A stretch of DNA of 46,724 nucleotides, taken from the IMG/VR virus record IMGVR_UViG_2579778634_000020. The stretch is one strand, 5' to 3'. Source of the DNA: a virus. Its lineage: Duplodnaviria > Heunggongvirae > Uroviricota > Caudoviricetes. Within the stretch, counting starts at the first letter, position 1, and every line of letters starts with the position of its first letter. The position numbers and the translations under genes are program-made. Positions 733-35,390 of the stretch are shown piece by piece. The notes below the pieces were generated by a model. That model made no database searches. It worked only from the letters and a program-made list of their open reading frames with translations, and was not told where the DNA came from.

Positions 733-3222
733 TCAATGTTCGCTTCCTGTTAACTGCCGGACAAGTGCAACCAGTTCGCTTACCTGATTTTCCAGAGTGC
801 TGATCCGGGTGTCTGCTGTTGCCAGATTTTCACGTAGCGTTGTGTTTTCCTCTTCCAGCGCGGTAACGCGATCATCTGTTTCACGGGCGACCTGAACAAG
901 TAAACCCGTCACGGCGGCGTAGTCAACATTAAGATAGCGCGTTTCTTCGCGTAGCTCGTTGCCGTCAACGGTCGGACCTTGTAACGCTTCACCGTAATGA
1001 GTAAACGATCCCACAGCTTCCGGTAGCGCCTCCATTACCTCCTGAGCGATAACGCCAGCGTAAGGTAGTCCGTTTTCCTTAAGGGTATAAGTGTACCCGT
1101 TCATTTTGCGGATGGCTTCAGTTGCATCACCTATAACCTGAATGTTGTCCTTCAGATCACGATCAGATGATTGGTTTATCGTTTCGCATGTAATGTGACC
1201 AGACGCTTTAAGATTTTTTACATCAAGTCTGTCGTTTGCAAAATTATATGAAATTGCGGTGCTGGTGCTTCCGGCATCATCATAATCGCTTTTATGAATA
1301 AACCAGTTTCCACCATTAGCAATGAGAGTATAAGTAGGCGTGTTAGCCGGGCGATCTGTTTCATTAAATCTTATTGCTGGGTTAGCGCTCCTTATTTGTA
1401 AAGGTTTTTCAACCGTGGATTTCAGTATCGCACTATCTACAATTAAATTACCTTCTGAGTTAATGTTTAGATATTTTGAAGCACCAGTTGAACCATCGTA
1501 TGTAAACCTTATTGTTAATTGACCTGGCTCATTTGATAAAGTCTCAACATACATATCAGCACCAAGACGCACAGTGCTGTCAGTTGCTAACAGTCTTGTA
1601 TGGAGAATACCACTAGATGTGTATGTATTGGTCGAATCACTATATCTATCAAGAAATAGACTGTTAAGTTGAGGGCTATTGCTCCTGCCTAATCCAAGAT
1701 TCGTTCTGGCACCATCAATAGTTGCCGCACCAGTACCTCCGGCCGCGATCGAAAGCGGAATCCATTCGCTATTCTCTGCATCGTAATAACCCCATGTTCC
1801 TGAATCGTAGATACTAAAAAATTTGCTTGCATTTTGACAATATACGCGTGTATTACCTGTTAGTTGAGTAAGCCTGTCCACTTCATCTTTTCTTGCGTGA
1901 CGCGTCCACTGCGGGCCTATTGTCGGATTCCAGCGATAAGTATAAAGCGAGCGCGTAGCCCATCCCTGAAATACACCTGTATACGCTGGTGTTCCATCTA
2001 CCTGACTAATAAACCCCGTAAGACTGCTTTCACCGGATGCAATCGATGGAAAGCCTTTTGCATTACTCATAATGCGCATAAATCCGATATACCCTGATGG
2101 GTTGCCGGAAATATCAGGACAATCACGCGGGGCTGAGCCAAGACCGATATTATCGCCAACAATTACTTGCGCCTGGTTGCGATAATTAAGTGCGTCCGCT
2201 GCAGATTTCGCCGCGTTTGTTTCACTGGATTTAGCATTAGTTTCGCTGGCTTTAGCGTTTGTTTCGCTGCTCTTTGCTGCTGCCTCGCTATTTTTCGCGT
2301 TGGTTTCTGATTTTTTGGCTGCTGTCGCGGAGTTTGCCGATGCAGTTTGTGAGGCCGCTGCCGCCTGTGCGCTGTTATCCGCATTCGTCTCAGACGTTTT
2401 TGCGGCCTTCGCGGAATTTCCTGCCGCCGTTGCCGAGGAAGCTGCACTACTGGCACTTGATGATGCGTTCGTTTCTGATGATTTCGCTGCCTCTTTTGAG
2501 GCCGCCGCATCCCGGGCTGAGGTGGCAGCTTCTGACGCTTTCGTGGTCGCGGTGGATGCAGAAGTGGCTGCAGATTTTTGTGACGCTGCAGCATTCGTTT
2601 CTGACGTTTTCGCCGCACCGGCACTGGTAGCCGCCGCGCTTTTTGAGGACTCTGCAGCGGCAGCACTTTTTGATGCTTCAGTAGCCTTTGTTGATGCCGT
2701 TCCTGCGCTGGAAGACGCTGACTGAGCCGACGTCGCGGCCTGCCCGGCTGATGTGCTGGCTGCACGTGCTGAGCCTGCAGCATCAGTCGCATGGGTTGCC
2801 GCCTCACGGGCTGATGTGCCGGCATCGCTGGCTGACTTCTTCGCGGCTGCCGTGTTCTGTTCCACTGCGGACGCGTTACGCGCCACCTCTTCCACCATCA
2901 GTTCAAAGCGGCGCAGTGCCTCCGGACGGGCATCATCCTCCGTCATGGCACCGAGAAAATCATTCAGTGTGCCCGGCTTTGAGTCCTCATATACGGTGAT
3001 AATCCCGGCGTGTGACGGCGGGAATCCCTCCACCAACAGACTGACGCTGTACTGACCATACTCGACGTCCATTGTGTAACGCCCGGCTTCATCCGGGTTT
3101 TCTGAGGCCACTGTGTTCACCACCACCGTGGTGCTGTTGCGCCTGGCCTTTAGCTGAATGGTGCAGTTTTGTATCGGCTTACCTGCGCCATCTTTCAGTA
3201 CACCTGAAATCCGTACTGCCAT
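733..3222 (-). CDS. Side tail fibre. It has an Stf-like N-terminus, a long Ala/Ser/Thr-rich repeat shaft, and a C-terminal intramolecular-chaperone (peptidase S74-type) domain.
   Basis: The N-terminus MAVRISGVLKDGAGKPIQNCTIQLKARRNSTTVVVNTV.. matches the remembered StfR/lambda Stf N-terminus. The C-terminus SDRDLKDNIQVIGDATEAIRKMNGYTYTLKENGLPYAGVIAQEV.. is typical of the auto-cleaving chaperone domain. RBS GGGGGGA is present. Confidence 0.9.
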   Translation of the reverse strand: MAVRISGVLKDGAGKPIQNCTIQLKARRNSTTVVVNTVASENPDEAGRYTMDVEYGQYSVSLLVEGFPPSHAGIITVYEDSKPGTLNDFLGAMTEDDARPEALRRFELMVEEVARNASAVEQNTAAAKKSASDAGTSAREAATHATDAAGSARAASTSAGQAATSAQSASSSAGTASTKATEASKSAAAAESSKSAAATSAGAAKTSETNAAASQKSAATSASTATTKASEAATSARDAAASKEAAKSSETNASSSASSAASSATAAGNSAKAAKTSETNADNSAQAAAASQTASANSATAAKKSETNAKNSEAAAKSSETNAKASETNAKSSETNAAKSAADALNYRNQAQVIVGDNIGLGSAPRDCPDISGNPSGYIGFMRIMSNAKGFPSIASGESSLTGFISQVDGTPAYTGVFQGWATRSLYTYRWNPTIGPQWTRHARKDEVDRLTQLTGNTRVYCQNASKFFSIYDSGTWGYYDAENSEWIPLSIAAGGTGAATIDGARTNLGLGRSNSPQLNSLFLDRYSDSTNTYTSSGILHTRLLATDSTVRLGADMYVETLSNEPGQLTIRFTYDGSTGASKYLNINSEGNLIVDSAILKSTVEKPLQIRSANPAIRFNETDRPANTPTYTLIANGGNWFIHKSDYDDAGSTSTAISYNFANDRLDVKNLKASGHITCETINQSSDRDLKDNIQVIGDATEAIRKMNGYTYTLKENGLPYAGVIAQEVMEALPEAVGSFTHYGEALQGPTVDGNELREETRYLNVDYAAVTGLLVQVARETDDRVTALEEENTTLRENLATADTRISTLENQVSELVALVRQLTGSEH

Positions 3223-3231
3223 ATTCCCCCC

Positions 3232-3260
3232 ACAAAAAAGCCCGCCTGAACCGGCGGGCT
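3232..3260 (-). terminator. Intrinsic terminator after lom
   Basis: Stem AGCCCGCC/GGCGGGCT (3239-3246 with 3253-3260), then a T-run on the minus strand. Confidence 0.75.
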
Positions 3261-3286
3261 GTCATAACACTGTGTTACCTGGCTAA

Positions 3287-3886
3287 TCAGAATTTATAAC
3301 CGACACCAACGATGAAACTGTTGGTACGCCAGTCACCGCTGCCGGAGCCTTCATAAGCGACGTCAACGGCCACGGATTCGGTCGGGTTAAACTGCACGCC
3401 AGCTCCCCACGCCAGAGACGTGTTGCTGTGGCGACCGTCATCACTTCCGGTCAGCACATCGTGCGTTTTCCCCTTGTTGTCAGTTACGCGGATATAATCC
3501 CCGGAGAAAGTCGACACACGGCTGTAAGCCATACCCGCCATCGCATACGCGCTGAACCATTCATTCACGCGCACAGACGGCCCCGCCATCACGCTGAACC
3601 AGCGATTACGCACGGAATCCTCATGCCAGCGGGTATCGCTGTAATGCGTTTTTTGCTCATCTTCAGCGTTGGCATAACTGAATGACGTAATCAGCCCCAG
3701 CGTGTCCGTAAACTCATAACGGTATTTCACGTTAATCCCGTTCAGATTATCGCTGCCGGGAGCGTTCGTACGGGCATGAAGATACCCTGCGCTCAGTGTG
3801 GCCTGCTGCTCAGACGCCCATGCAGGCGCACCGGATACGGCCAGACAGATGGCTGCGGACAAAATGGCTGCACAAACTTTACGCAT
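3287..3886 (-). CDS. lom: Lom/Ail-family outer-membrane beta-barrel protein (moron)
   Basis: Signal peptide MRKVCAAILSAAICLAVSGAPAWA, alternating beta-strand pattern and a terminal YKF. Sits between J and the tail fibre, as in lambda. Confidence 0.9.
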   Translation of the reverse strand: MRKVCAAILSAAICLAVSGAPAWASEQQATLSAGYLHARTNAPGSDNLNGINVKYRYEFTDTLGLITSFSYANAEDEQKTHYSDTRWHEDSVRNRWFSVMAGPSVRVNEWFSAYAMAGMAYSRVSTFSGDYIRVTDNKGKTHDVLTGSDDGRHSNTSLAWGAGVQFNPTESVAVDVAYEGSGSGDWRTNSFIVGVGYKF

Positions 3887-3908
3887 AATTACCTCTCGCT
3901 TTTCTGCA

Positions 3909-3935
3909 ATAAAAAAGGCGCCATTTCTGGCGCCC
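3909..3935 (-). terminator. Intrinsic terminator after J
   Basis: GGCGCC (3917-3922) pairs with GGCGCC (3929-3934), followed by TTTTTT on the minus strand. Confidence 0.7.
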
Positions 3936-3953
3936 GTATATGGGTTATAAAAT

Positions 3954-6900
3954 TCAGCTGATACTGATGCCTGCGGTGGCTTTCTTCATCACCACAACCA
4001 GCAAATCGCTGATACTTGCTGTGGGATACCAGTCATTTACCAGCCATGCTGACACCGAAAACTCCAGCGTCGTGTGACCGTGACCGGCAGGCATATCAAT
4101 AACGCCACTGTAAATCAGCGTATTATCCAGCGCGGTACGGTTATAAATTTCAGCACCGTTTTTCCGCACTATCAGACGGCATGAGGAGTAAATATCAGTA
4201 TGCTCTCTCTCATGTTTAGCGCCGCTGAATGCCACCGCCGGAATAACAATCTGCCGGTCAAACGGCTGATCGTCATAAATCCTGACGGTAATGGTCCCTG
4301 ATGGCCACCGCTCCGGTGCCCGGGAGTCCCGCGGGAAAGCCTTACCCACTGTTTTGACAATATCGCCTTCAATCTGGTTGGCTGACAGTTTCCCTTTAAT
4401 CTGACAGTTCTCATTTATCGTAACGTTGTTGAGCGTCCCGGCGTTCGCATTCACACTGCCACTGATATCCGCATTTTTAGCGGTCAGCTTTCCGTCCGGT
4501 GTCAGGGAAAAGGCCGGAGGATTGCCGCCGCTGGTAATGGTGGGGGCCGTCAGGCGCTTCAGGAACACTTCATTCATGAATATCTGATCACCCTGACCAA
4601 CAAACATCGGTTTTGTGTTGCCATTCGCAGGATTAATCATCGCAATCCTGTCTGCCGCCAGCAGCACCTGACTCTGCATGCCGTCAGGGGTGTTCTCAAT
4701 ACCGGCACCAATACCCGCGATATAAAGGCGTCCGTCCTGCATCTGCTGCAGCTTCACAGCCCACATGCTGTTCAGGTTATTATTTGTATCAACCTGAACC
4801 TTCTGTATCTGCTGAATTGCAGCACTCTGGTCTTCCAGTTTCTTATTGACGGTCTGCGTGATTTCATTGCTGACATCCGTAATGGACGTCCTGATTTCAG
4901 CCAGGTCAGGCGCAAGCTGACCGTTATCAATCTGCGTCCACAGCTCCTGAGCCAGATGGGTTTTCCCTATCTCGCCTTTGAAAAAATCCAGATAACCGGA
5001 TGCATCATCACTCGGCTGACCAACAGCCTCCACGAATGCCGATTTGCCAACGGTGTTCACACTGCGGATATAAAAGTAATAATCATGGCCCGGTTTGATA
5101 TTGATACTGGCGGCTATCCAGTACAGCGCCGTACCAAGATAGCGTGCTGTGGTTTCAACCTGCCTGATATCCGCAATCCGCTTTTCCGAGAACCAGAACT
5201 CAAACTGTACCGTCGGATCATAAACCGCAAGATGCGGCGTGGCGGTTATCTGAAAATAGCCCGGTGTCAGCTCAATCCGAGACGGCGCTGCCGGTGCGGC
5301 AATCCGGAACGATACCGATGCCGGATCGCCCTGCTGTCCCCACGCATTTACCGCCCGGACTGTCAGCCTGTAGTTCCCCAGCGCCAGTTGCGTGAAGCGG
5401 TATGTAGTTTCCGTCGTCCGGGCCGTGCTGACCAGCCGCTCACTGCCGTCATCCGCTGCCACGGTCAGGCGAAGCATAAAGCTCACCCCCTTCACCACCT
5501 TCGGCGTGTCCCAGCGCGCCAGCACCTGATATTCCCCGCTGTCTGCGGTGACTTCGGCAGTCAGGTGCTGCACCGCTGGCGGCGTGACACCATTCACCGT
5601 GCCGCTCTGGTCGCCGTCAAAGTGCGCCCCGTTATCCACGATGGCCTCTTTTTCCGGCACATGCTGCACGGCGGTGATGGCATACGTGCCGTCGTCGTTC
5701 TCACGGATACTCACGCAGCGAAACAGTCGCTGGCGCAGCGTCGGCAGCTTCAGCCCCCATACGCTGTATTCAGCAACACCGTCAGGAACACGGCTCACTT
5801 TTACCTTCACGCCGTCGGTGGCGGACTGGACCTCCACGCTGACCGGATTGCCATTTCCGTCAACCAGGCTTATCAGCGTGGTACCGGAGGATGGCAGCGT
5901 GATTTCACGGTCGAGCGTCAGCGTCCGGGTCTGGCTGTTCACCGCCAGCACGCGCCCACCGGTGCTGATACCCGCATAGTCATCATCACAGATTTCAATG
6001 ACATCGCCCGGCACATGGCGAAGCCCTTCTGCGCCCACGCTGAAGTCCACGGTCTGCGTTTCCAGCAGTTCTGTTTTAATCAGCCACAGCCCGGCGCGGT
6101 GTGCCTGCCCCCGGCTGGTACAGCCAAAGGCATCCATCTTCGTGACATTACGACCATAACGGGCAATGGCCTGCGTATCTTCAACAAGCTCTGTCGCCGT
6201 CTCCCAGCCGTTGTCCGGGTCAATCCAGTTCACCTCAACGGCATTATGGCGGACCTTCAGGGCGCTGAAACTGTAGCGGAACGGCGCGCCATCATCCGGC
6301 ATCACCACATTACTGCGGTTATAGGTCCACACCTTATCCGACGGCCGGTCCTGCACGAACGTCAGCGTCTGCCCGTTCCATACCGGCATACAGCGCATCG
6401 CCGAGCAGAAATCACTGAGCACATCCCACGCCTTACGCTGTGTGGTCAGCCAGGCATTACAGGTGATGCGCGGCTCCGTGCCGCCAAAGCCGTCCGGCAC
6501 CGACTGGTCGCAGTACTGGCCGATGACATACAGCGCCCATTTATCCACATCCGCCGCACCAAGACGTTTCCCCATGCCGTAGCGCGGGTGGGTCAGCATA
6601 TCCCACAGACACCATGCCATGTTGTTGCTGTATGCTGGCTTAAACGTTCCGTCCCAGATACCGCTGTATTGCCGCGTCTGCGGGTTATAGTTCGACGGCA
6701 CCTGCAGAATGCGCCCGCGAAGATGATAATTACGGCTCACCTGCTGGCTGCCGAACTGCTCCGAGTCCACCTGTACGCCGACCAGTGCCGTGTTCGGGTA
6801 GCACTGTTTCACATCGATGATTTCGGTGTATGACGACCAGAGCGTTTTGTTCTGCAGCTGGTCTGTGGTGCTGTCCGGCGTCATCCTGCGCATCCGGATG

Positions 6901-9480: not shown

Positions 9481-9818
9481 CAGATCACCACTTCGTCAAA
9501 CTGACACGAAAAATCGGTATAGGTGATATGTTCTGTCGCTGACCACGTTCGACACACCACTCTGATTTTTCTGTTAATACCCGGCGGGCGCCAAAAAAAA
9601 GATTTATAGCCTTCATGCCGGGCTAAAAATTTTTCAAATGAATCACGTTCATTCGCCTCAACTTTGAAATCACAGGTGAAAACGCGCAGAGAATGATTAA
9701 GTCCATTTGGACTTCGTTGCTCATAACCATCGCCAAATCTTACAATTTTTATCGATGGTTTATTTTCTGTTTTCATTCCATCCTCTGGTAACCAGTGAAA
9801 TTCTTCCGTATTAGCCAC
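9480..9818 (-). CDS. Minor tail protein M
   Basis: 112 aa, located between the tape measure and L. Confidence 0.85.
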
Positions 9819-12800
9819 TTAACATTCCCCCATCACGTCGCATATTTAACAGATTGCCCTGCACCCGCTGATCAACCATCCCCATAAGTGCTTTTATTGC
9901 CTGAGGGCCAATCTCTCCATTCTGGCCGTCATTTTGAATAGTGATTTGGTATACAGGGGCATAGGTAATATCTCCGCCTCCATTACCACTTTTACTATTA
10001 ATAGCTCTGACACCAAGAGAACCATCGGAAGTTCGTGTTAATGGCATAATGGCTTCCGGTCCAGCCTCACCAAAAACACCAGCCCCTTTTGCAAAAGCAA
10101 AAAATTGCGGGGAATCATAAATACCGTTCGAATACGTGCTCAATGACGGAGACTCATAAACACCGCCCTTTGCATTCGGAATAAATTTACTAATAGCACT
10201 CCCGATAGTTCCTAAAATCCCCCCAGAAGAACTGTTACTAATGCTGTCGAAAATCCCAGTAATTGAAGCCTTTAATGCTATTCGACTAAGATCCGAAATC
10301 ACGGAAGTAGCGAAAGAACGAAAATTTGCCTTGCCTGTCGTGACAAAATCACCCAGCGCATCGGTCATCCCATCAAACATCTGAGTCGTGGTTGATTTTA
10401 TCTGCTCACTGATATCCTTAGTGTCATCCAGCCAGTTATTGAATCCCTGGGAGGCACCACTAACCCAGTCTCCTGCCTGAATATCGAGCTGCTCGTTTTT
10501 CTGTCTGACAATTTCTTTTTCCCGTTCCAGAGCATCATTCAGAGCCTGCATTTTCTCTTGAAAAACATGATCTGACATTCCACGGGATTTATCTGCATAG
10601 TCACGTTCAAGTTGCAGACGCTGATTGTTATATCCATGTTCAATCCGCAGTAATTCCTGCTGGCGTTGCTGATTTTTATCGCCAACCCCATAACCAGCAA
10701 TCTGAATATCATACCCCTGCTGACGATTATCAATCGAAGCCTGCAATGAATCACGCCATGCTGTTATTTCGGCGGATTCCTTGATTAGCCTGTTATTCTT
10801 TTCAATCGCAACATTTTTCTCCATCAACGCGGTTATTTCTTCCCGGTGTAAGAGAAGCGATTTCTGATCCTGGGTTAATTTCGATGATGGTCGTGACTCC
10901 AGGTCGGCAATCCGCTGACGCCACTTAACCAGTTCCTGTTCAGAGGAACTTAATTTAACGGTCAACTCAGCTTGTGAACTTAGTAACGCATTCTGTTGAT
11001 TCAGATGATCAATCATTCGTTGGGCTGCATCATCAGAATAACCTTTCGCCTTTGGTTGCTTTGGATCTTTATAACGCTCATTTATTTGAGCGATAAGATT
11101 ATTATATTCTTCCTTTGAATACTGATTCTTTAGCTTTTCCAGTTTTGCAAGTTCACTAGCTCTCTGCTGCTCCCGGGTCTGATATTGTTTTGAAAAGGCA
11201 TCTGCTCTCTGTCTGAGTTCAATTCCTTCCTGTTGTCGCTTGTTGTAATCGTTTATTGATGAATTTAGTACGTCCTGAGCAATTTTTTCTGCTTGAAGTA
11301 CGCCCAATTGCTGCTTTAATCGTGCCAGCCTTTTATTTTGAGCTCCGCCATCTCCAATGCCACCTAACCCGAAAACTCCGGGTCGGGTATTTTTTTCTAT
11401 TTCATCAATTTGACGGAGAACATCTGAGATTTTTTGATCAAGGGAGGCCTCACGGCCAATATCCAGCATGGAATCCCATGCCCATTTTGCGGAGTCTGCG
11501 ACAGCTTTCCATGCAGTCTCAAGATAACCAAGATTTTCTTTAATCTGGTTGGTGCGCTGGATCATTGAGGATGAGTATTCTTCTGTCGCAATGCGGGCGG
11601 CCTCCTGCTGGTTCCCTTCATCCTGTAGCGCCTTAATCTGGTTATAAGTCGCAAGTGTCAGAAAATGGTACTGATCATTAAGTTTTGATATGGCACTGAC
11701 AGGATCCTTTGCAATTTCATTGAAGTCATTAACCAGTTGTTCGGTTGATATTCCTGTTACTTCGCTCGTTTTTACTATCGCTGTCGTCACTTGCTCCAGC
11801 GAACTGCTCGCTACCTTTCCCGAACGCACAAGCTGATTTAATACTGCCGCCGCAGCACCAGTTGTCGAATCAGCCGCATTCCCGGCACGTTGAGCTATAT
11901 CGCCCAATTGCCCGCTGGTTGTCCCCAACTGATTTCCGGTAAGAATAAGAGATTTATTAAATTCGTCCTGCTCCTGAGAGCCTTTATAGTAAGCCAGTCC
12001 TAAGACCCCAACGGCTGCTGCGGCCAGGGTAAAAGGATTAATTAATCCCAGCACATAAGAACCTACACCTTTGATCGCCGGGCCAATCCCACCGAACATA
12101 TCTTTTAGCTGGCCGCCCTGCTGCATTAACACCATAAATGGCGACTGACCAGTGGACAACCCAACAACAATATCCGTCATTTGTGCAGGCAACATGCGCA
12201 TAGCAAAAGCCGTTTGTTTTGCCGACATTCCGGTTTTGCTTAATTGTGATTGGGTAACCTCAAGCTCACTCCGCATAGCACGAAGTTTTCCAGAAAGCTC
12301 CTCATACATTTCAGGAGAAAGCATCCCCTTAGCTTTTGCTTCATTGAGCTGTTTCTGTTGTTCTACCAGACGATTAAAAGCAGTTCCGACAGGATCAAGT
12401 TGAGCAATCAGACGTTGCAAAGCAACAACCTGTTCATCATGCGCTTTTGCTGCTTCTCGCTCTGCCTGAGCCTCTCCGGTAAGCTCTCGCCGTGTTTCCT
12501 GTATTTTTCGGCTATAATTCTCAAACTGAGAACCATTTATTTTCCCGGATGCAAACGCAGCATTAAGTTCATCATGCTGTTGTTCAAGATTTCTTAGCGC
12601 CGCAGCCAGAGGGTCGATCTTGTCCAGCATTCTTTGAAAGGCCTGAGCCTGCGCTTCCTGCTGGGCGGCAGCAAGTTTTCCGGCCTTCTCGGCTTCTCTC
12701 TGCGCTTGCGCAACCCCGCTCAATTCCTCTGTGGTTTCATTAAGTTTACGGACAAGAAATTCATATTCTTCTTTATCAATAAGCCCTTTATCGAAAAATT

Positions 12801-13044
12801 TCTTTAATTCAGAATAGCGTCGACCGACAGTATCAATTGCGGCACCAACTGGATCAATAGCTGCTTTTAATTTTGCGAGCGCGTTCTTCTCATCTTCTGT
12901 TGCCTTAGTCACTTTCCCTGCGCTATTTGCAGCAGTTTCCCCAGCCTGCGTCATTTTGACTAATGAGGAGGTCAGATTGTCAGCATTATTTTTCGCTCCA
13001 GTGCTATCAATAATTATTGCGAGACGCGAGGTTTGCTCTGCCAT
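9811..13044 (-). CDS. Tail tape measure protein
   Basis: 1077 aa, coiled-coil rich with a central hydrophobic segment. Follows the G/GT chaperones. Confidence 0.95.
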
Positions 13045-13057
13045 TTATTAAAACTCC

Positions 13058-30666: not shown

Positions 30667-31265
30667 TACGCAAACTCCAGCAGCTGCGCGGCCACATTTT
30701 CGACTTGTTCCGGAGAGGAAAATTTACGGAACAGAATCCAGTTCCACAGCACATTCAGAACAGATTTATAAACCTGCTGAAACTCGGTTTCGTCCATATT
30801 CGCAAAAGCGATAGATTTTGCCCGACGCCCGCGGCTACCGTCCTGATAAAAATGTTCGGTGTAAAATCCAGCCTGAATGGTTACCCACTCGCGAAAAGCC
30901 TCAAACGACTTTAGCAATGCCGTATCCCGGGTTCTGCGTGTCGCAACTGTATTCAGATATTGCTCTGCGGCATCACTCAGGGCTGGCGTGTGTTCCCGAC
31001 CAACTGATTCGCACAGGTAATCAACGAAACCAGACAGCAGTTCTCGTTCGCGAGGCGTGATCGCCCCACCGACCGGAGTCCAGTAATCGAATCCCAGTTG
31101 CAGGAGTTTGAAAAAACGCTTGTGGAATGCGTAGTTACGCACACGCTTAAAGTCTGCGTGTATCCACTCGCCTATTTTGATTTGATGCAGAAAATCACAA
31201 CTCTCCGGCGTCGCCGGGAGAAGTAATCCGGAAGAGGTTTGTTTGACCAGTTGTATATGCGCCAT
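30666..31265 (-). CDS. DUF1367 (YbcN/YdfU-like) nin-region protein
   Basis: 199 aa. N-terminus ..IHADFKRVRNYAFHKRFFKLLQLGFDYW.. as remembered for the family. Confidence 0.65.
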   Translation of the reverse strand: MAHIQLVKQTSSGLLLPATPESCDFLHQIKIGEWIHADFKRVRNYAFHKRFFKLLQLGFDYWTPVGGAITPRERELLSGFVDYLCESVGREHTPALSDAAEQYLNTVATRRTRDTALLKSFEAFREWVTIQAGFYTEHFYQDGSRGRRAKSIAFANMDETEFQQVYKSVLNVLWNWILFRKFSSPEQVENVAAQLLEFA

Positions 31266-31537
31266 TTCTTAATCTCTCGATGGCGCAGCGCAGCAGATGC
31301 CAGTTGTTCAGGCTGACGTATGAAGTATAAATAAACTGGCTCCAGTGTAAAGCCCCACCTTAATGGAATAAAAACCAAACAACAGATTGCTGGGATACAA
31401 ACAACGCTTATTATTAAAAGCGGTTAAACAAATTAAATTTTAATGTTATGCAAATCTGCCAGATCACCATAATATCTCATTTGAAAACCGCTGAAATAAC
31501 AACCCTATTAGGGTTAATCATATTAAGGTGAGTAAAT

Positions 31538-31624
31538 ATGGAAAACAACAAATCTGCACATTACGTTCCTTTTTTATCTGTAATACTTTTTGTTTTATGC
31601 TGTGCGTGGGCATTATTTTTATAA
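31538..31624 (+). CDS. Possible 28-aa hydrophobic peptide
   Basis: RBS AAGGTGAG. Translation is MENNKSAHYVPFLSVILFVLCCAWALFL*. Preceded by the palindrome AACCCTATTAGGGTT (31501-31515). Confidence 0.3.
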   Translation: MENNKSAHYVPFLSVILFVLCCAWALFL

Positions 31625-31635
31625 AAATATTCACA

Positions 31636-31672
31636 GATAAAATATACCCGCCAAAGTTGGTTAAGTGCGGGT
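31636..31672 (-). terminator. Terminator of the hok-like mRNA
   Basis: ACCCGC...GCGGGT hairpin, then ATATTTTAT on the minus strand. Confidence 0.6.
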
Positions 31673-31730
31673 GCGTTGAGGATGCCTGACTCATCAGAGG
31701 TGGCGAGGGATTTCTCCCTCGCCTGGTCTC

Positions 31731-31883
31731 TCACTCCTCAGGTTCGTAAGCTGTGAAGACAGCGACCTCCGTCTGACCGGTTCGGATTTGTACCTCGCAG
31801 AAGTCTTTCCTTGTTACCAGTGCCATCACAACGACGGTAATACAGATGACAATCAGGGCGGTTAACATCGTCTTTTGCTGCAT
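31731..31883 (-). CDS. Hok/Gef-family type I membrane toxin, 50 aa (below the ORF track's apparent ~60-aa minimum)
   Basis: Translation is MQQKTMLTALIVICITVVVMALVTRKDFCEVQIRTGQTEVAVFTAYEPEE*. It matches the Hok consensus (..LIVICxTxxxxxxLTRKxLCEVRIRxGxTEVAxFxAYE..). Confidence 0.9.
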   Translation of the reverse strand: MQQKTMLTALIVICITVVVMALVTRKDFCEVQIRTGQTEVAVFTAYEPEE

Positions 31884-31897
31884 CACAGCCTACTTAC

Positions 31898-31932
31898 CCT
31901 TACCTTTCGTTCAAGCGGTAAGGTCACTTTTT
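31898..31932 (+). ncRNA. Candidate 3' hairpin/terminator of a Sok-like antisense RNA
   Basis: CCTTACC/GGTAAGG (31898-31904 with 31917-31923), then TCACTTTTT. Lies antisense to the hok leader. Neither the promoter nor the 5' end was located. Confidence 0.35.
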
Positions 31933-32031
31933 CTGTTGTGTGCTAACCAACAAACCTCTTTTATCTGCATTAAAAATCGTTATCATGTCATCCTCAACCT
32001 GTTAATAGCCTATTATGGACTTTAGTAAACA

Positions 32032-33861
32032 ATGAGCACTTCCGCATACAAGAGCAAAATTCGAACACTCCAGTGCGCGTTAAAAAACGGTGAATTTGAA
32101 CCATTCATACAACATATCCGTTTTCCATACTTTAAAAATATAGAGCAGAATGCAAGGATCGATTTTCAGTTCCCTATAACGGCTTTAGTAGGAAAAAATG
32201 GAACTAATAAAAGTTCTGTTATCAAAGCGCTATTTGGTTGCCCACATGGTAAAAATATAACTCGTTATTGGTTCACAACTGAAACAGATGAGTTTCCTGA
32301 CCTAAAACTTGCTGATGGCAGTTCTCTTAAACCTAGATATATATATGGATATAAAAATGCTGATGGCCGTTTAGTTGAAATACTCCAAGCACGTATCAAT
32401 GCTACCAAGAAAACAATCGATTATTGGGAAACAAGTCGACCATCTGTTGGTGATAACATGGAGAGTATTTCGGATGATCTGGGTGCTAATAGTAATGCAA
32501 CCAGATGGAAAAAAATCAAGAAGGGATTGGTTTTCCTAGATTTCAGATCGGAAATAAGTGCATTTGATAGATGTATGTATCACTCTGATTTTAAATTAAG
32601 AAAGAAGAAGAGTGGTGTATTAATTACAAAGCAAGACTATATCAGAAGCAAATCTAAATATATAAAGAAAGCTTTTGATGAAAAGCTAAGTAATTTAAGA
32701 CTCTGGGGGGCGGAAACCATTGTTAAAAATATAACCTTGGCGCCAGAACTAGTTGAGCACGTCTCATTTATATTAGGGAAAAAATATAAAGTCATTAAAT
32801 TTCTTGAGCATCGGTTATTTGGAACCAGAGGAGGAACCGCTTTACTTTCAACTGATAAGTTGAACTATACAGAAGCGTTTGCTGGAAGTGGTGAATTTGC
32901 AATAGTTTCACTAATACTCAATATTTATTCGGCCAAACCTAATTCATTAATTCTTCTTGACGAACCAGAAGTTTCACTTCACCCTGGTGCACAAAAAAGG
33001 ATGATGGATGTTCTGTACTCTATTGTTGAGCAGAAAAAACATCAAGTGGTAATATCAACCCATTCTCCTGTTATTGTGAACACTCTTCCCAAAGATGCCA
33101 TTAAATTATTTGTTTTTGATGAAGAGAGTGAAACAGCTAAAATAGTTCAAAATATAGCACCGGATGAAGCTTTTATAGAGCTAGGGCATGATATTAACAA
33201 GAAAACAATAATTGTAGAAGATAAATTAGCTAAAGCAATTATAGATAAAGCGATTAAAAATGATGAAAGATTAAGCTTATCATTTAGTGTAAGTTATATA
33301 CCAGGTGGTTCGGAGACCATTTTAAGCAAGCATCTTCCCAGTTACGCTGTGGTAGAACGCAATGATATTTTGTTTTTACTTGATGGTGATAAAAACAAAA
33401 AAATAAAACCAGTAAGAATTAGTGAAATTGCTGATGCTGATTTAGTTAATACAATGTGCAAATATTATGGTTGCGAGTTAATTATCAATGCCAGTGGTAG
33501 TAATGGCAAAAAAAATGAACAAGAATCTAATAGACTCAAAAGGCAAGTGCTTGAGTATGCATTCAATAAAGTGCAGTATTTACCATTTGATACTCCCGAA
33601 CAATTACTCATTGAAAAGGCAATTACGCCAAGTGAAAAAGAAATAATTGATTCACAGACCTGGAGTTCTAATGATCCAGAACTGTATAAGAATCAAATAA
33701 GATTATTAGCGCAACACCTGTATGATAAAGAAGAAGTAAATGCAGAGGAAATTTTTTGCCTCCAACAAATGATGACCGCAAGACTTAAAAATGAATTGCC
33801 TGAATTTATAAAAATAAGAAAAATAATTACTCAGGCTCTTGACCGTGGTATCATTAGGTAG
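32032..33861 (+). CDS. ABC-type (AAA_15/21-like) ATPase fused to a C-terminal Toprim/DUF4435-like region; OLD/PARIS-like architecture
   Basis: Walker A GKNGTNKS (aa 54-61), signature-like AGSGE (aa 284-288), Walker B LILLDE (aa 306-311), H-loop STHSP (aa 342-346). C-terminal IIVED (aa 393-397), PGGSE (aa 424-428) and LLDGDKN (aa 449-455) resemble the Toprim E..DxD pattern. Confidence 0.8.
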   Translation: MSTSAYKSKIRTLQCALKNGEFEPFIQHIRFPYFKNIEQNARIDFQFPITALVGKNGTNKSSVIKALFGCPHGKNITRYWFTTETDEFPDLKLADGSSLKPRYIYGYKNADGRLVEILQARINATKKTIDYWETSRPSVGDNMESISDDLGANSNATRWKKIKKGLVFLDFRSEISAFDRCMYHSDFKLRKKKSGVLITKQDYIRSKSKYIKKAFDEKLSNLRLWGAETIVKNITLAPELVEHVSFILGKKYKVIKFLEHRLFGTRGGTALLSTDKLNYTEAFAGSGEFAIVSLILNIYSAKPNSLILLDEPEVSLHPGAQKRMMDVLYSIVEQKKHQVVISTHSPVIVNTLPKDAIKLFVFDEESETAKIVQNIAPDEAFIELGHDINKKTIIVEDKLAKAIIDKAIKNDERLSLSFSVSYIPGGSETILSKHLPSYAVVERNDILFLLDGDKNKKIKPVRISEIADADLVNTMCKYYGCELIINASGSNGKKNEQESNRLKRQVLEYAFNKVQYLPFDTPEQLLIEKAITPSEKEIIDSQTWSSNDPELYKNQIRLLAQHLYDKEEVNAEEIFCLQQMMTARLKNELPEFIKIRKIITQALDRGIIR

Positions 33862-33884
33862 TGATTCTGGATGCAGAGGGAAAA

Positions 33885-34925
33885 ATGAAAAAAATCAAAG
33901 TGTTTGACTTCTTTTCCGGTTGTGGTGGAACCAGCCAAGGTTTCCATCAAGCTGGAATGGATATTGTTTTTGGCCTCGATTTCGACGTTGATGCAGCCAG
34001 TTCATTTCGTGCAAATTTCCCGCAGGCTGCTTTTATTAACTCGGACATTAGGTTAATCGACAACAATGCCATAAACAAGTTAGTAAAAAAACATCGTAAT
34101 GATTACATTCTTTTTTCAGGATGTGCGCCTTGTCAACCGTACTCTAAGCAAAACTCAAATAAGAAAAATGATGATCCACGATTAGATCTATTAAAGGAAT
34201 TCAGTCGCTTTGTAGAGCATTATATGCCTGATTTTATTTTTGTTGAAAACGTGCCAGGAATGCAAAAGTTTAACAAAAATGAAGGAACATTCATGATGTT
34301 TTTAGAAATGCTTTCATCAAAGGGATATAGTGTAGATTATAAAGTAATGCCAGCTGCGTGGTACGGTGTACCACAGACGCGAGAAAGATTAGTGCTCATT
34401 GCATCCAAGGATTTTTATGTCGCATTGCCTTCTCCTACACATGGGGTTGGAAATACTCCCTATTCAACAGTAAAGGACTGGATCGCTAATTTACCGAAGA
34501 TAGAAGCAGGAGAAAAGCATAATAGTATTCCTGATCATGAAGCTGCACGCTTATCAGAGCTTAATTTACGTAGAATAAAATGCACTCCTGAAGGTGGAAG
34601 TCGAGAATTTTGGCCAGATGAATTGATTTTAGAATGCCATCGTAACCATAAAGGGCATACAGACGTATATGGACGTTTGAGTTGGGACAAACCAGCCAGC
34701 GGACTAACAACTCGTTGTATTAGCTATTCAAATGGACGTTTTGGACATCCAACACAAAATCGAGCAATATCGGTTCGTGAAGCAGCGTGTCTACAAACAT
34801 TTCCTTTGGATTATAAATTTATTGGTTCTTTGCAATCTCGGGCTCGTCAAATAGGAAATGCGGTCCCTCCGAAGATGTCTGAAACGATTGGAAAACATTT
34901 GCTTAATATAATCAAAGCCTCCTAG
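33885..34925 (+). CDS. DNA (cytosine-5) methyltransferase
   Basis: All conserved motifs are present: I DFFSGCGG, IV GCAPCQPYS, VI FVENVPG, VIII QTRERL, IX SVREAACLQTFP, X GNAVPP. ATG at 33885 follows GAGGG. The ORF track starts it at GTG 33861. Confidence 0.95.
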   Translation: MKKIKVFDFFSGCGGTSQGFHQAGMDIVFGLDFDVDAASSFRANFPQAAFINSDIRLIDNNAINKLVKKHRNDYILFSGCAPCQPYSKQNSNKKNDDPRLDLLKEFSRFVEHYMPDFIFVENVPGMQKFNKNEGTFMMFLEMLSSKGYSVDYKVMPAAWYGVPQTRERLVLIASKDFYVALPSPTHGVGNTPYSTVKDWIANLPKIEAGEKHNSIPDHEAARLSELNLRRIKCTPEGGSREFWPDELILECHRNHKGHTDVYGRLSWDKPASGLTTRCISYSNGRFGHPTQNRAISVREAACLQTFPLDYKFIGSLQSRARQIGNAVPPKMSETIGKHLLNIIKAS

Positions 34926-34940
34926 GAGGCTTTATTTTAT
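34914..34940. terminator. Bidirectional terminator closing the cassette
   Basis: GCCTCC TA GGAGGC (34917-34930), flanked by an A-run upstream and TTTATTTTAT downstream. The MTase stop codon lies in the loop. Confidence 0.7.
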
Positions 34941-34958
34941 TGTTATCCCCCCTAGTAG

Positions 34959-35390
34959 TTAATCGTGCTCACCAGACAACCTCCTGAAATTACTCTGGTA
35001 AAATGCCAGTACACGCTGCATAACTTCGCTTTTCCGGCACTCGCGACAGATTATATTCAGGCGCCTGTCGTAGCGGCGTATTTCTCCGTCTGGTAATGAC
35101 CAGATAAGGTCAGGATCAACCACAACCGTTTTTTTCACCTTTGCCCTGGATAGTTTTTTGCGGGCGTTTTGCCAGTCCTTACGAGCCTGCTCAGACGGGA
35201 ATAATCCGTAGCCTGAATTGTAAACATCACCACTGGCGACCAGTTCTCTGGCGAGAGTGCTTATGTAATACCTTGATGCACCGGTTTTAGCCTCCAGAGC
35301 CCGTAACGTCTCGCGACCGCTCAGACGTACAAGTTCAACAACCTGCCCTTTAATTTTTTCCCGCTCTTCTGGTGTAAATACTTTTGCCAT
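34959..35390 (-). CDS. Hypothetical phage protein with a putative HTH, 143 aa
   Basis: RBS GGAGG before MAKVFTPEERE... Positioned after the replication module. Confidence 0.7.
   Translation of the reverse strand: MAKVFTPEEREKIKGQVVELVRLSGRETLRALEAKTGASRYYISTLARELVASGDVYNSGYGLFPSEQARKDWQNARKKLSRAKVKKTVVVDPDLIWSLPDGEIRRYDRRLNIICRECRKSEVMQRVLAFYQSNFRRLSGEHD

Follow-up and report, generated by a model that had tools for sequence, protein, structure and literature searches.

The DNA analysed here, referred to as the window, is IMG/VR virus record IMGVR_UViG_2579778634_000020, which is 46,724 nucleotides (nt) long and represents, in full length, a lambdoid prophage of the Rac type from Escherichia coli. 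Two adjacent genes on its + strand were investigated. Gene 1 (32032-33861, with its TAG stop codon at 33859-33861) encodes a protein of 609 amino acids (aa) that is held in RefSeq as WP_000107696.1, 'ATP-dependent nuclease'. Gene 2 (33885-34925) encodes a 346 aa cytosine-C5 DNA methyltransferase (C5 methylase), held as WP_000721512.1 and matched by PF00145 and TIGR00675. The 23 nt between them (33862-33884) contain a Shine-Dalgarno sequence, GAGGG, at 33876-33880, and a scan of this spacer for terminators found none. The original prediction of two co-oriented genes at these positions, 23 nt apart, agrees with both the open reading frames (ORFs) and the sequence. In its RefSeq twins gene 2 starts at the ATG at 33885, and an alternative, longer ORF with a GTG start runs from 33861. 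The pair is best explained as one conserved, horizontally mobile module, which the Rac-type prophage here carries in a cargo slot, as a moron.

The ABC ATPase head of gene 1 covers aa 26-364 (32107-33123). It contains a Walker A motif, GKNGTNKS, that includes K60 (32191-32214), an ABC signature, AGSGE (aa 284-288; 32881-32895), a Walker B motif, LILLDE (aa 306-311; 32947-32964), and an H-loop, STHSP (aa 342-346; 33055-33069). The Toprim core is assigned to aa 388-460 (33193-33411), with E396 (33217-33219) in the motif IIVED, PGGSE at aa 424-428, and D451-G-D453 (33382-33390) in LLDGDKN. All of the motifs that had been quoted for gene 1 are at the residues where they were placed, and the key positions are invariant in 66 homologues: K60, D310/E311, H344, E396-D397, G426, D451 and D453, with AGSGE also listed as invariant. 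Pfam identifies AAA_21, AAA_15 and SMC_N in gene 1. Structurally, the head resembles those of SMC, Rad50, PtuA, OLD and GajA, and is closest to SMC and Rad50.

A full-length model of gene 1 was generated with AlphaFold2 (AF2) from an alignment of 66 sequences, with a mean pLDDT (predicted local distance difference test) score of 87.8. Its best PDB matches are GajA and the Thermus scotoductus OLD protein, which align end to end over 612-661 columns (E 3.5e-12). A Toprim-like fold had been proposed for the C-terminal region. In a Foldseek search with a separate model of aa 372-609 (pLDDT 90.1), the top four PDB matches were 6njv, 6nk8, 6njx and 6njw, all from the C-terminal Toprim part of class-2 OLD proteins of Xanthomonas and Burkholderia. 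The probabilities were 0.99-1.0, but the E values were modest (about 1e-3), with template-modelling (TM) scores of 0.36-0.42; AriB came next, at a probability of 0.6. Gene 1 shares the combination of ABC ATPase and Toprim with the OLD family, including P2 Old, TsOLD, GajA, the retron Eco8 effector, AriA/AriB and Cran1, but its Toprim differs in having no sequence-level match to the Toprim domains of Pfam or the PDB. Pfam searches with the C-terminal 249 or 143 aa returned nothing relevant (no Toprim, OLD-like_TOPRIM or DUF4435), and a profile of the C-terminal region found no match among the PDB sequences. In an hhalign comparison of the family profile with P2 Old only the Walker B region aligned; one Bacteroidota member of the family matches the P2 Old profile across positions 281-503.

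The profiles of PADLOC-DB v2 were compared by score alone. On these scores the best profile for gene 1 is HEC-04 (E 1.7e-34, 117 bits), for which the best stretch is profile positions 160-383 of 494, and HEC-04 is likewise the best profile for every member of the gene 1 family tested (116-130 bits). The profile for the ATPase-Toprim protein of type I-B retrons (ATPase-Toprim_I-B; E 2.8e-26, 91 bits) spans aa 41-464, and the matches to the PtuA, AriA, GajA and Old profiles are confined to the surroundings of Walker B. No NCBIfam model scored above its cutoff for gene 1, the weak matches being to PtuA, MAD3, a restriction-associated AAA family and the Eco8 effector. When searched by itself, the C-terminal fragment is placed on positions 311-384 of the HEC-04 profile, such that E396, D451 and D453 fall on HEC-04 residues E319, D375 and D377; K60 falls on K62. 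HEC-04 is an experimentally validated defence protein that requires its Walker A lysine and its Toprim acidic residues, and an E319/D375/D377 triple mutation abolishes its defence (Payne et al. 2024 preprint). A related single-protein defence is IbfA of IncI1 plasmids. BLASTP aligned gene 1 to an IbfA-like IncI1 plasmid ATPase-Toprim protein with 31% identity over 172 aa (E 3e-18), from Walker B through IIVED/ILVED to LLDGD/ILDGD.

Gene 1 therefore has both marks of the OLD superfamily, an ABC head with its four motifs and a Toprim glutamate plus DxD, the latter recognised through structure and motifs together. From models and alignments it is concluded that gene 1 encodes an ATPase-Toprim protein of the OLD superfamily in which the catalytic signature, with the residues that bind ATP and metal, is intact; the fold evidence is specific rather than strong. 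The earlier description of the protein as OLD/PARIS-like, with a Toprim/DUF4435 pattern, holds for the OLD-type Toprim and is loose as regards PARIS, the nearest profiles being those of HEC-04 and the retron I-B ATPase-Toprim protein.

Two further parts of gene 1 are conserved. An insert between Walker A and the signature (aa 66-283; 32230-32880) has invariant W80, F81, D86, E116, R121, W132, E133, R136, R158, D170-F171-R172 and Y183. This is conservation far beyond what dimerisation would need, and the insert is a candidate surface for contact with DNA or with the methylase. The C-terminal helical region (aa 496-609; 33517-33858), seen in the AF2 secondary structure with pLDDT above 90, is conserved in the family, with P518, E523 and K553 invariant in the 66 homologues, and matched no named domain. 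HEC-04 and IbfA have in common with gene 1 an ABC ATPase head and, after it, a Toprim with E...DxD. Each of them works as one gene, about 500 aa long, to which no methylase is dedicated, whereas gene 1 is about 600 aa long, is tied to a C5 methylase, has the conserved insert and the extra C-terminal helical region, and scores as a distant relative.

Gene 2 is a complete C5 methylase, as had been predicted. The motifs FSGCGG, PCQ (with the catalytic Cys83, codon 34131-34133), ENVPG, QTRERL, REAA..LQTFP and GNAVPP are present in order, and the protein is matched end to end by PF00145 (residues 4-339 on 1-322 of 324, E 4.9e-61). TIGR00675 matches above its cutoff (E 1.4e-48). Of the PADLOC profiles, MTase_II (E 1.3e-96) and the DruM-type profiles are closest. 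The methylases that are paired with gene 1 homologues form a dedicated lineage to which gene 2 belongs, and all C5 motif residues are invariant across it. Within the main paired lineage the target-recognition region (approximately 34392-34760 in gene 2) is conserved at 60%, compared with 55% for the catalytic core. Within the target-recognition region, a C251-H252...G257-H258 cluster (aa 251-258, approximately 34635-34658; ECHRNHKGH) is invariant in the paired lineage and missing from a Bacteroidota sub-lineage; the cluster is possibly a metal site.

The association of the two genes was assessed in a scan for gene 1 relatives with one genome per species (185,579 genomes). Approximately 250 relatives were found, the best 80 were kept, and 78 of the resulting loci have a gene 1 ORF; all ORFs of these 78 loci were then searched with the methylase of the window. 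The kept relatives cover the Proteobacteria, Actinomycetota, Bacteroidota, Bacillota, Myxococcota, Patescibacteria and others. The family comprises 374 clusters at 50% identity (E <1e-30, among 1.84 billion representatives), and its members are about 600 aa in length and alignable throughout. A C5 methylase is directly adjacent on the same strand in 56 of the 78 loci, lying downstream in 37, upstream in 15 and in overlapping ORF calls in 4. A further 11 have a same-strand C5 methylase one or two genes away, and one has a C5 methylase on the opposite strand at a distance of 2.2 kb. The remaining 10 have none, four of these being on contigs too short to tell. Among IMG/VR viral contigs the methylase is directly adjacent in 58 of 61 loci (53 co-directional and 5 convergent) and nearby in the other three. 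The genes are found as nuclease-methylase, methylase-nuclease and convergent pairs, orders that are typical of restriction-modification operons; the stop codon of one gene often overlaps the start codon of the next, and in Bacteroidota Vsr lies downstream.

The converse also holds. When viral contigs were scanned with a profile of the paired methylases, gene 1 was immediately upstream of all 17 methylases with at least 58% identity, and adjacent in only 1 of 63 loci where identity was 53% or less. Pairwise identities of the two proteins are correlated (r = 0.61, Mantel p = 0.001). It had been suggested as an alternative that a class-1 OLD nuclease and an orphan anti-restriction methylase are simply juxtaposed, which in the present case would mean in a prophage moron slot. 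Lambdoid prophages do often carry orphan methylases and single-gene defences, and PADLOC would probably label gene 1 alone as the single-gene system HEC-04, on a distant match. However, adjacency is maintained in both directions in Proteobacteria, Actinomycetota, Bacteroidota, Bacillota, Patescibacteria and others, and the proteins co-evolve. Chance juxtaposition is therefore excluded, its probability being put close to nil, and the two genes constitute a module. Its components are inherited as a unit, co-evolve and, in most lineages, are co-transcribed.

Within the window the pair is a low-GC (guanine plus cytosine) insert, at 34-39% compared with 42-52% for the flanks, and runs antisense to the Rac-type prophage. 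As had been noted, its neighbours are all on the - strand, with a hok/gef-family gene and DUF1367 (NinB-like) on one side and DUF977 on the other. A terminator-like hairpin, AAAGCCTCCTAGGAGGCTTT, is located at 34914-34941, overlapping the end of gene 2; it is bidirectional, with T-runs, and is the single terminator that had been predicted downstream of the pair. The candidate promoter 5' of gene 1 was not confirmed: when the 145 nt between the hok/gef gene and gene 1 (31887-32031) were scanned for the consensus, no sigma-70-like site turned up on the + strand. The promoter of the cassette is presumably within this intergenic region. The hok/gef-family toxin gene itself (31731-31886, - strand) is directly 5' of the cassette and divergent to gene 1. 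From the usual organisation of hok/sok, it can be speculated that a Sok-type antisense promoter at this gene would face gene 1; an Rfam scan of 31200-35200 (E <= 0.01) matched no RNA family, hence no sok/hok RNA was detected.

The prophage gene order is tail fibre, terminase, trkG, lysis, nin region, ydaV/U/T/S, racR, sieB, kilR, recET, ralR and xisR/intR. Its tape-measure gene (9814-13046, - strand) is annotated as frameshifted in an identical RefSeq record, and the prophage may thus be defective in spite of its full gene set. A search with the 3.4 kb at 31700-35100 found base-for-base identity to E. coli strain WP5-S17-ESBL-10 and others.

Of 5426 complete E. coli genomes, 32 have the allele of the window at 99% identity or more. 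Two other alleles, at about 39% protein or about 71-74% DNA identity, are present in 8 and 10 genomes, so that all three together account for 50. Both diverged alleles (L082-L086 and L154) are paired with a methylase and are located in lambdoid prophages, with the Q antiterminator on one side and the holin on the other, which is where Stx phages carry stx. The DUF1367-DUF977 slot of a sibling Rac prophage contains the known anti-phage system IetAS (iteA/iteS) instead (locus L235, E. coli CNR85I8, 1379-4772, matching window positions 31266-34958), and in other prophages it contains queH, or a hydrolase and an insertion sequence element (IS481). The slot is a variable cargo hotspot. The 2.9 kb module is present in prophages of E. 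coli, Klebsiella, Salmonella and Citrobacter. Searches of a phage GenBank collection by DNA and by protein returned no record that has the pair, and one distant full-length relative of gene 1 was found on plasmids.

Public databases give gene 1 generic names such as 'ATP-dependent nuclease' and 'AAA family ATPase', and in PHROGs there is a related family with its function listed as unknown. PADLOC-DB v2 has no model for the gene 1 family or for the pair as a system. Literature searches on both accessions and on OLD or Toprim proteins with methylases returned no description of the pair, although the survey of ABC ATPases by Krishnan et al. 2020 may already list such neighbourhoods. WonAB, a Gabija linked to PluTI and a paper on Geobacillus were also considered and have no relation to the pair. 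HEC-04 is defined as a single-gene system, a part of its definition that a gene with a conserved methylase partner does not fit.

The published OLD classes are distinguished by context: class 1 stands alone, class 2 is accompanied by the GajB helicase, class 3 by a retron's reverse transcriptase together with its non-coding RNA (msr/msd), class 4 is the split PARIS system with a DUF4435-type AriB, and class 5 is archaeal Cran1 with a membrane protein. At least 10 further clades have been described only as uncharacterised. The expectation that OLD effectors had not been described with a modification enzyme was correct for these classes, none of which has a methylase partner. Class 1 was rejected for the present pair on account of the conserved C5 methylase. 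Class 2 (Gabija, with the UvrD/PcrA-like helicase GajB) was rejected as neither the window nor any of the loci viewed by eye shows a helicase, annotated or otherwise, and the GajA profiles reach the ATPase motifs only. For class 3 there is no reverse transcriptase gene nearby, nor an Rfam match in the region scanned. For class 4 the AriA profile (78 bits) covers the ATPase only, there is no DUF4435 match in Pfam, and the structural match to AriB is weak.

The module has closer parallels among modification systems. Type I and type III restriction-modification (R-M) systems, and the GHKL/paraMORC systems with 5-methylcytosine (5mC) methylases (PMC2292703), likewise have a methylase that is co-inherited with an NTP-dependent nuclease component in an R-M-like operon, in some cases with Vsr, and at some loci a gene 1 homologue occurs together with a GHKL ATPase. 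They differ in the motor, which in them is a helicase or a GHKL ATPase and in gene 1 an ABC/SMC-type head. They also differ in the nuclease, since those of ATP-dependent R-M systems are PD-(D/E)xK, HNH or PLD enzymes and that of gene 1 is a Toprim.

Partners other than the main methylase lineage are informative. For the variants with three or four genes the Pfam scan covered L024, L076 and L078, and the rest of these were assigned by N-terminal sequence similarity. Several loci of Bacteroidota and others (L024, L059, L070, L071, L073 and L076) have a GHKL ATPase (HATPase_c_3) between the methylase and the gene 1 homologue, with Hypoth_Ymh confirmed beside HATPase_c_3 in L024 and with Vsr after the gene 1 homologue in L071, L073 and L076. 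In L078 and L079 the order is methylase, a GHKL/HEF_HK histidine-kinase-like protein, a Response_reg_2 protein and the gene 1 homologue. Gene 1 is disrupted beside an intact methylase in L009, L132 and L149. At some loci the flanking genes resemble those of type I R-M systems, on the evidence of their N-terminal sequences alone. In a distance tree of gene 1 homologues the changes of partner are nested in clades that otherwise have the main methylase lineage. Sister methylase lineages on viral contigs have GHKL/paraMORC-like ATPases or GmrSD_N (DUF262) proteins in the position of gene 1. It is possible that those paired with GmrSD_N (L174 5044-6108; L178 5007-6856, where a HEPN protein is also present) are other methylase-plus-effector modules. 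Across the wider methylase clade, NTPase-type partners are therefore interchangeable. The arrangement with GHKL-type partners is of the kind that Iyer, Abhiman and Aravind (PMC2292703) have interpreted as R-M systems.

Involvement in defence is supported by the HEC-04 and IbfA relatives, by IetAS in the same slot, by three diverged alleles in moron slots of E. coli lambdoid prophages and by the type I R-M-like flanking genes of some loci. The reading that is favoured, as somewhat more likely than not, is that the pair is an R-M-like anti-phage system with an OLD-family nuclease as its effector. It draws on the fixed pairing and the correlated identities, on the R-M-type gene orders, on the sister methylases with other NTPase-type partners and on the loci where gene 1 is disrupted beside an intact methylase. 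In such a system the methylase would place its mark on its target sequence in resident DNA. The ATPase-Toprim protein would bind or hydrolyse ATP to engage DNA and would act where the mark is absent, for example on incoming phage DNA. It might then cleave the DNA, or tRNA as P2 Old and AriB do. Either the nuclease would read the unmethylated site itself or the methylase would target the nuclease, as in type III enzymes. The greater conservation of the target-recognition region than of the core fits a specificity that is fixed because the nuclease partner depends on it.

Several observations weigh against this reading. No DNA-reading domain was found in gene 1. No recognised restriction-endonuclease family is present in its Pfam matches or in the 25 PADLOC matches listed of 141 families, on which basis a type II R-M system was rejected, and Toprim restriction enzymes are not known to be established. 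Some homologues are in operons that already have a conventional endonuclease. In L067 (3657-7764) the gene 1 homologue is coupled through overlapping stop and start codons to an M.HpaII-like methylase and R.HpaII, and L069 is similar; in L011 it is beside a methylase and a SmaI-like endonuclease, and likewise in L038, with L069 and L038 assigned from the similarity of N-terminal sequences. A plain restriction-enzyme reading of gene 1 would not predict such operons. L043 and L065 have no methylase within approximately 6 kb, and in L065 (4762-7752) the homologue adjoins an AspBHI-like 5mC-dependent restriction enzyme; the nuclease is therefore not always lethal when unpartnered. In L030 the methylase ORF is split and gene 1 is intact, although this is a metagenome-assembled genome and an assembly error is possible.

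The pair does not fit a textbook type II system, because the effector is ATP-dependent and of no recognised restriction family, coexists with conventional endonucleases and swaps methylases. This makes it more likely that the nuclease is targeted by the methylase, as in type III enzymes, or reads the mark out less directly, and the repeated switches of methylase partner in the nuclease tree are taken to point to methylase-dependent targeting.

The same variant loci bear on a second explanation, in which gene 1 would be a guard or backup that acts by abortive infection. It would not read methylation on DNA but would monitor the methylase or the activity of an associated R-M system, as PrrC does for EcoprrI, or would sense phage anti-restriction factors or aberrant DNA, as in PARIS and P2 Old, and when triggered would cleave tRNA or DNA indiscriminately and abort the infection. 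The likeness to PrrC-EcoprrI and PARIS is that an OLD-clade ABC ATPase is tied to a modification system, and some gene 1 homologues are indeed appended to complete R-M operons (HpaII, SmaI-like). The relatives P2 Old and AriB are tRNases whose release is brought about by DNA structures or by anti-restriction proteins (PMC11464382). A backup role has been discussed in the literature for ABC-ATPase defences that lie within modification systems. The exchange of methylase partners within gene 1 clades, and the few homologues with no methylase, also speak for a guard. However, most gene 1 loci offer a methylase alone, with no primary restriction enzyme to back up, and the partner is one methylase lineage rather than type I systems. 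This explanation leaves unaccounted for a single obligate C5 lineage that is never without gene 1 in viral contigs, as well as the strong conservation of the target-recognition region. It is considered unlikely, though it is the most serious competitor to the R-M-like reading.

In a third explanation gene 1 would accompany the methylase for the sake of repair. Its ABC ATPase-Toprim product would deal with damage that arises from C5 methylation, either T:G mismatches from 5mC deamination or covalently trapped methylase-DNA adducts, the latter processed in the manner of Rad50/SbcCD. The link of gene 1 is exclusively to C5 methylases, not to N6 or N4 enzymes, and the head domain is most like SMC and Rad50. 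In Bacteroidota there are operons of a methylase, a GHKL (MutL-like) ATPase, a gene 1 homologue and Vsr. A precedent is dcm-vsr, a methylase-nuclease pair without restriction that is helped by MutS and MutL. In those Bacteroidota operons, however, Vsr is present besides gene 1, and so has not been replaced by it. The module is mostly found in prophage cargo hotspots with known defence systems, all characterised bacterial relatives are defence proteins, and the distribution is patchy and horizontal (about 250 matches among the 185,579 species genomes and, for E. coli, 50 of 5426). A role in repair is thus improbable.

How OLD-family nucleases discriminate self from non-self is an open question, and Gabija, class-1 OLD proteins and HEC-04 are without a clear mechanism. 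What would be new is an OLD-family effector under R-M-type logic. A clade in which a DNA methylase is the only conserved partner offers a direct and testable answer, and would tie abortive OLD effectors to epigenetic self-marking. The case is about evenly balanced as to whether the pair is the founding example of a widespread OLD-family class, in which a C5 methylase gives self/non-self discrimination to an ABC-ATPase/Toprim effector. That effector would be the first ATP-dependent restriction enzyme built on Toprim, or else an abortive nuclease gated by methylation. In such a class the methylase may be the targeting subunit. If the nuclease cuts DNA, Toprim would join the catalytic folds of restriction and the protein could be a new ATP-dependent, methylation-sensitive enzyme. 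Since the slots that it occupies in prophages are common to stx and other defences, the module is relevant to host range in phage therapy and to the interpretation of 5mC methylomes. As a compact 2.9-kb cassette native to E. coli, it would provide an experimental handle on the choice between self and non-self in the OLD family.

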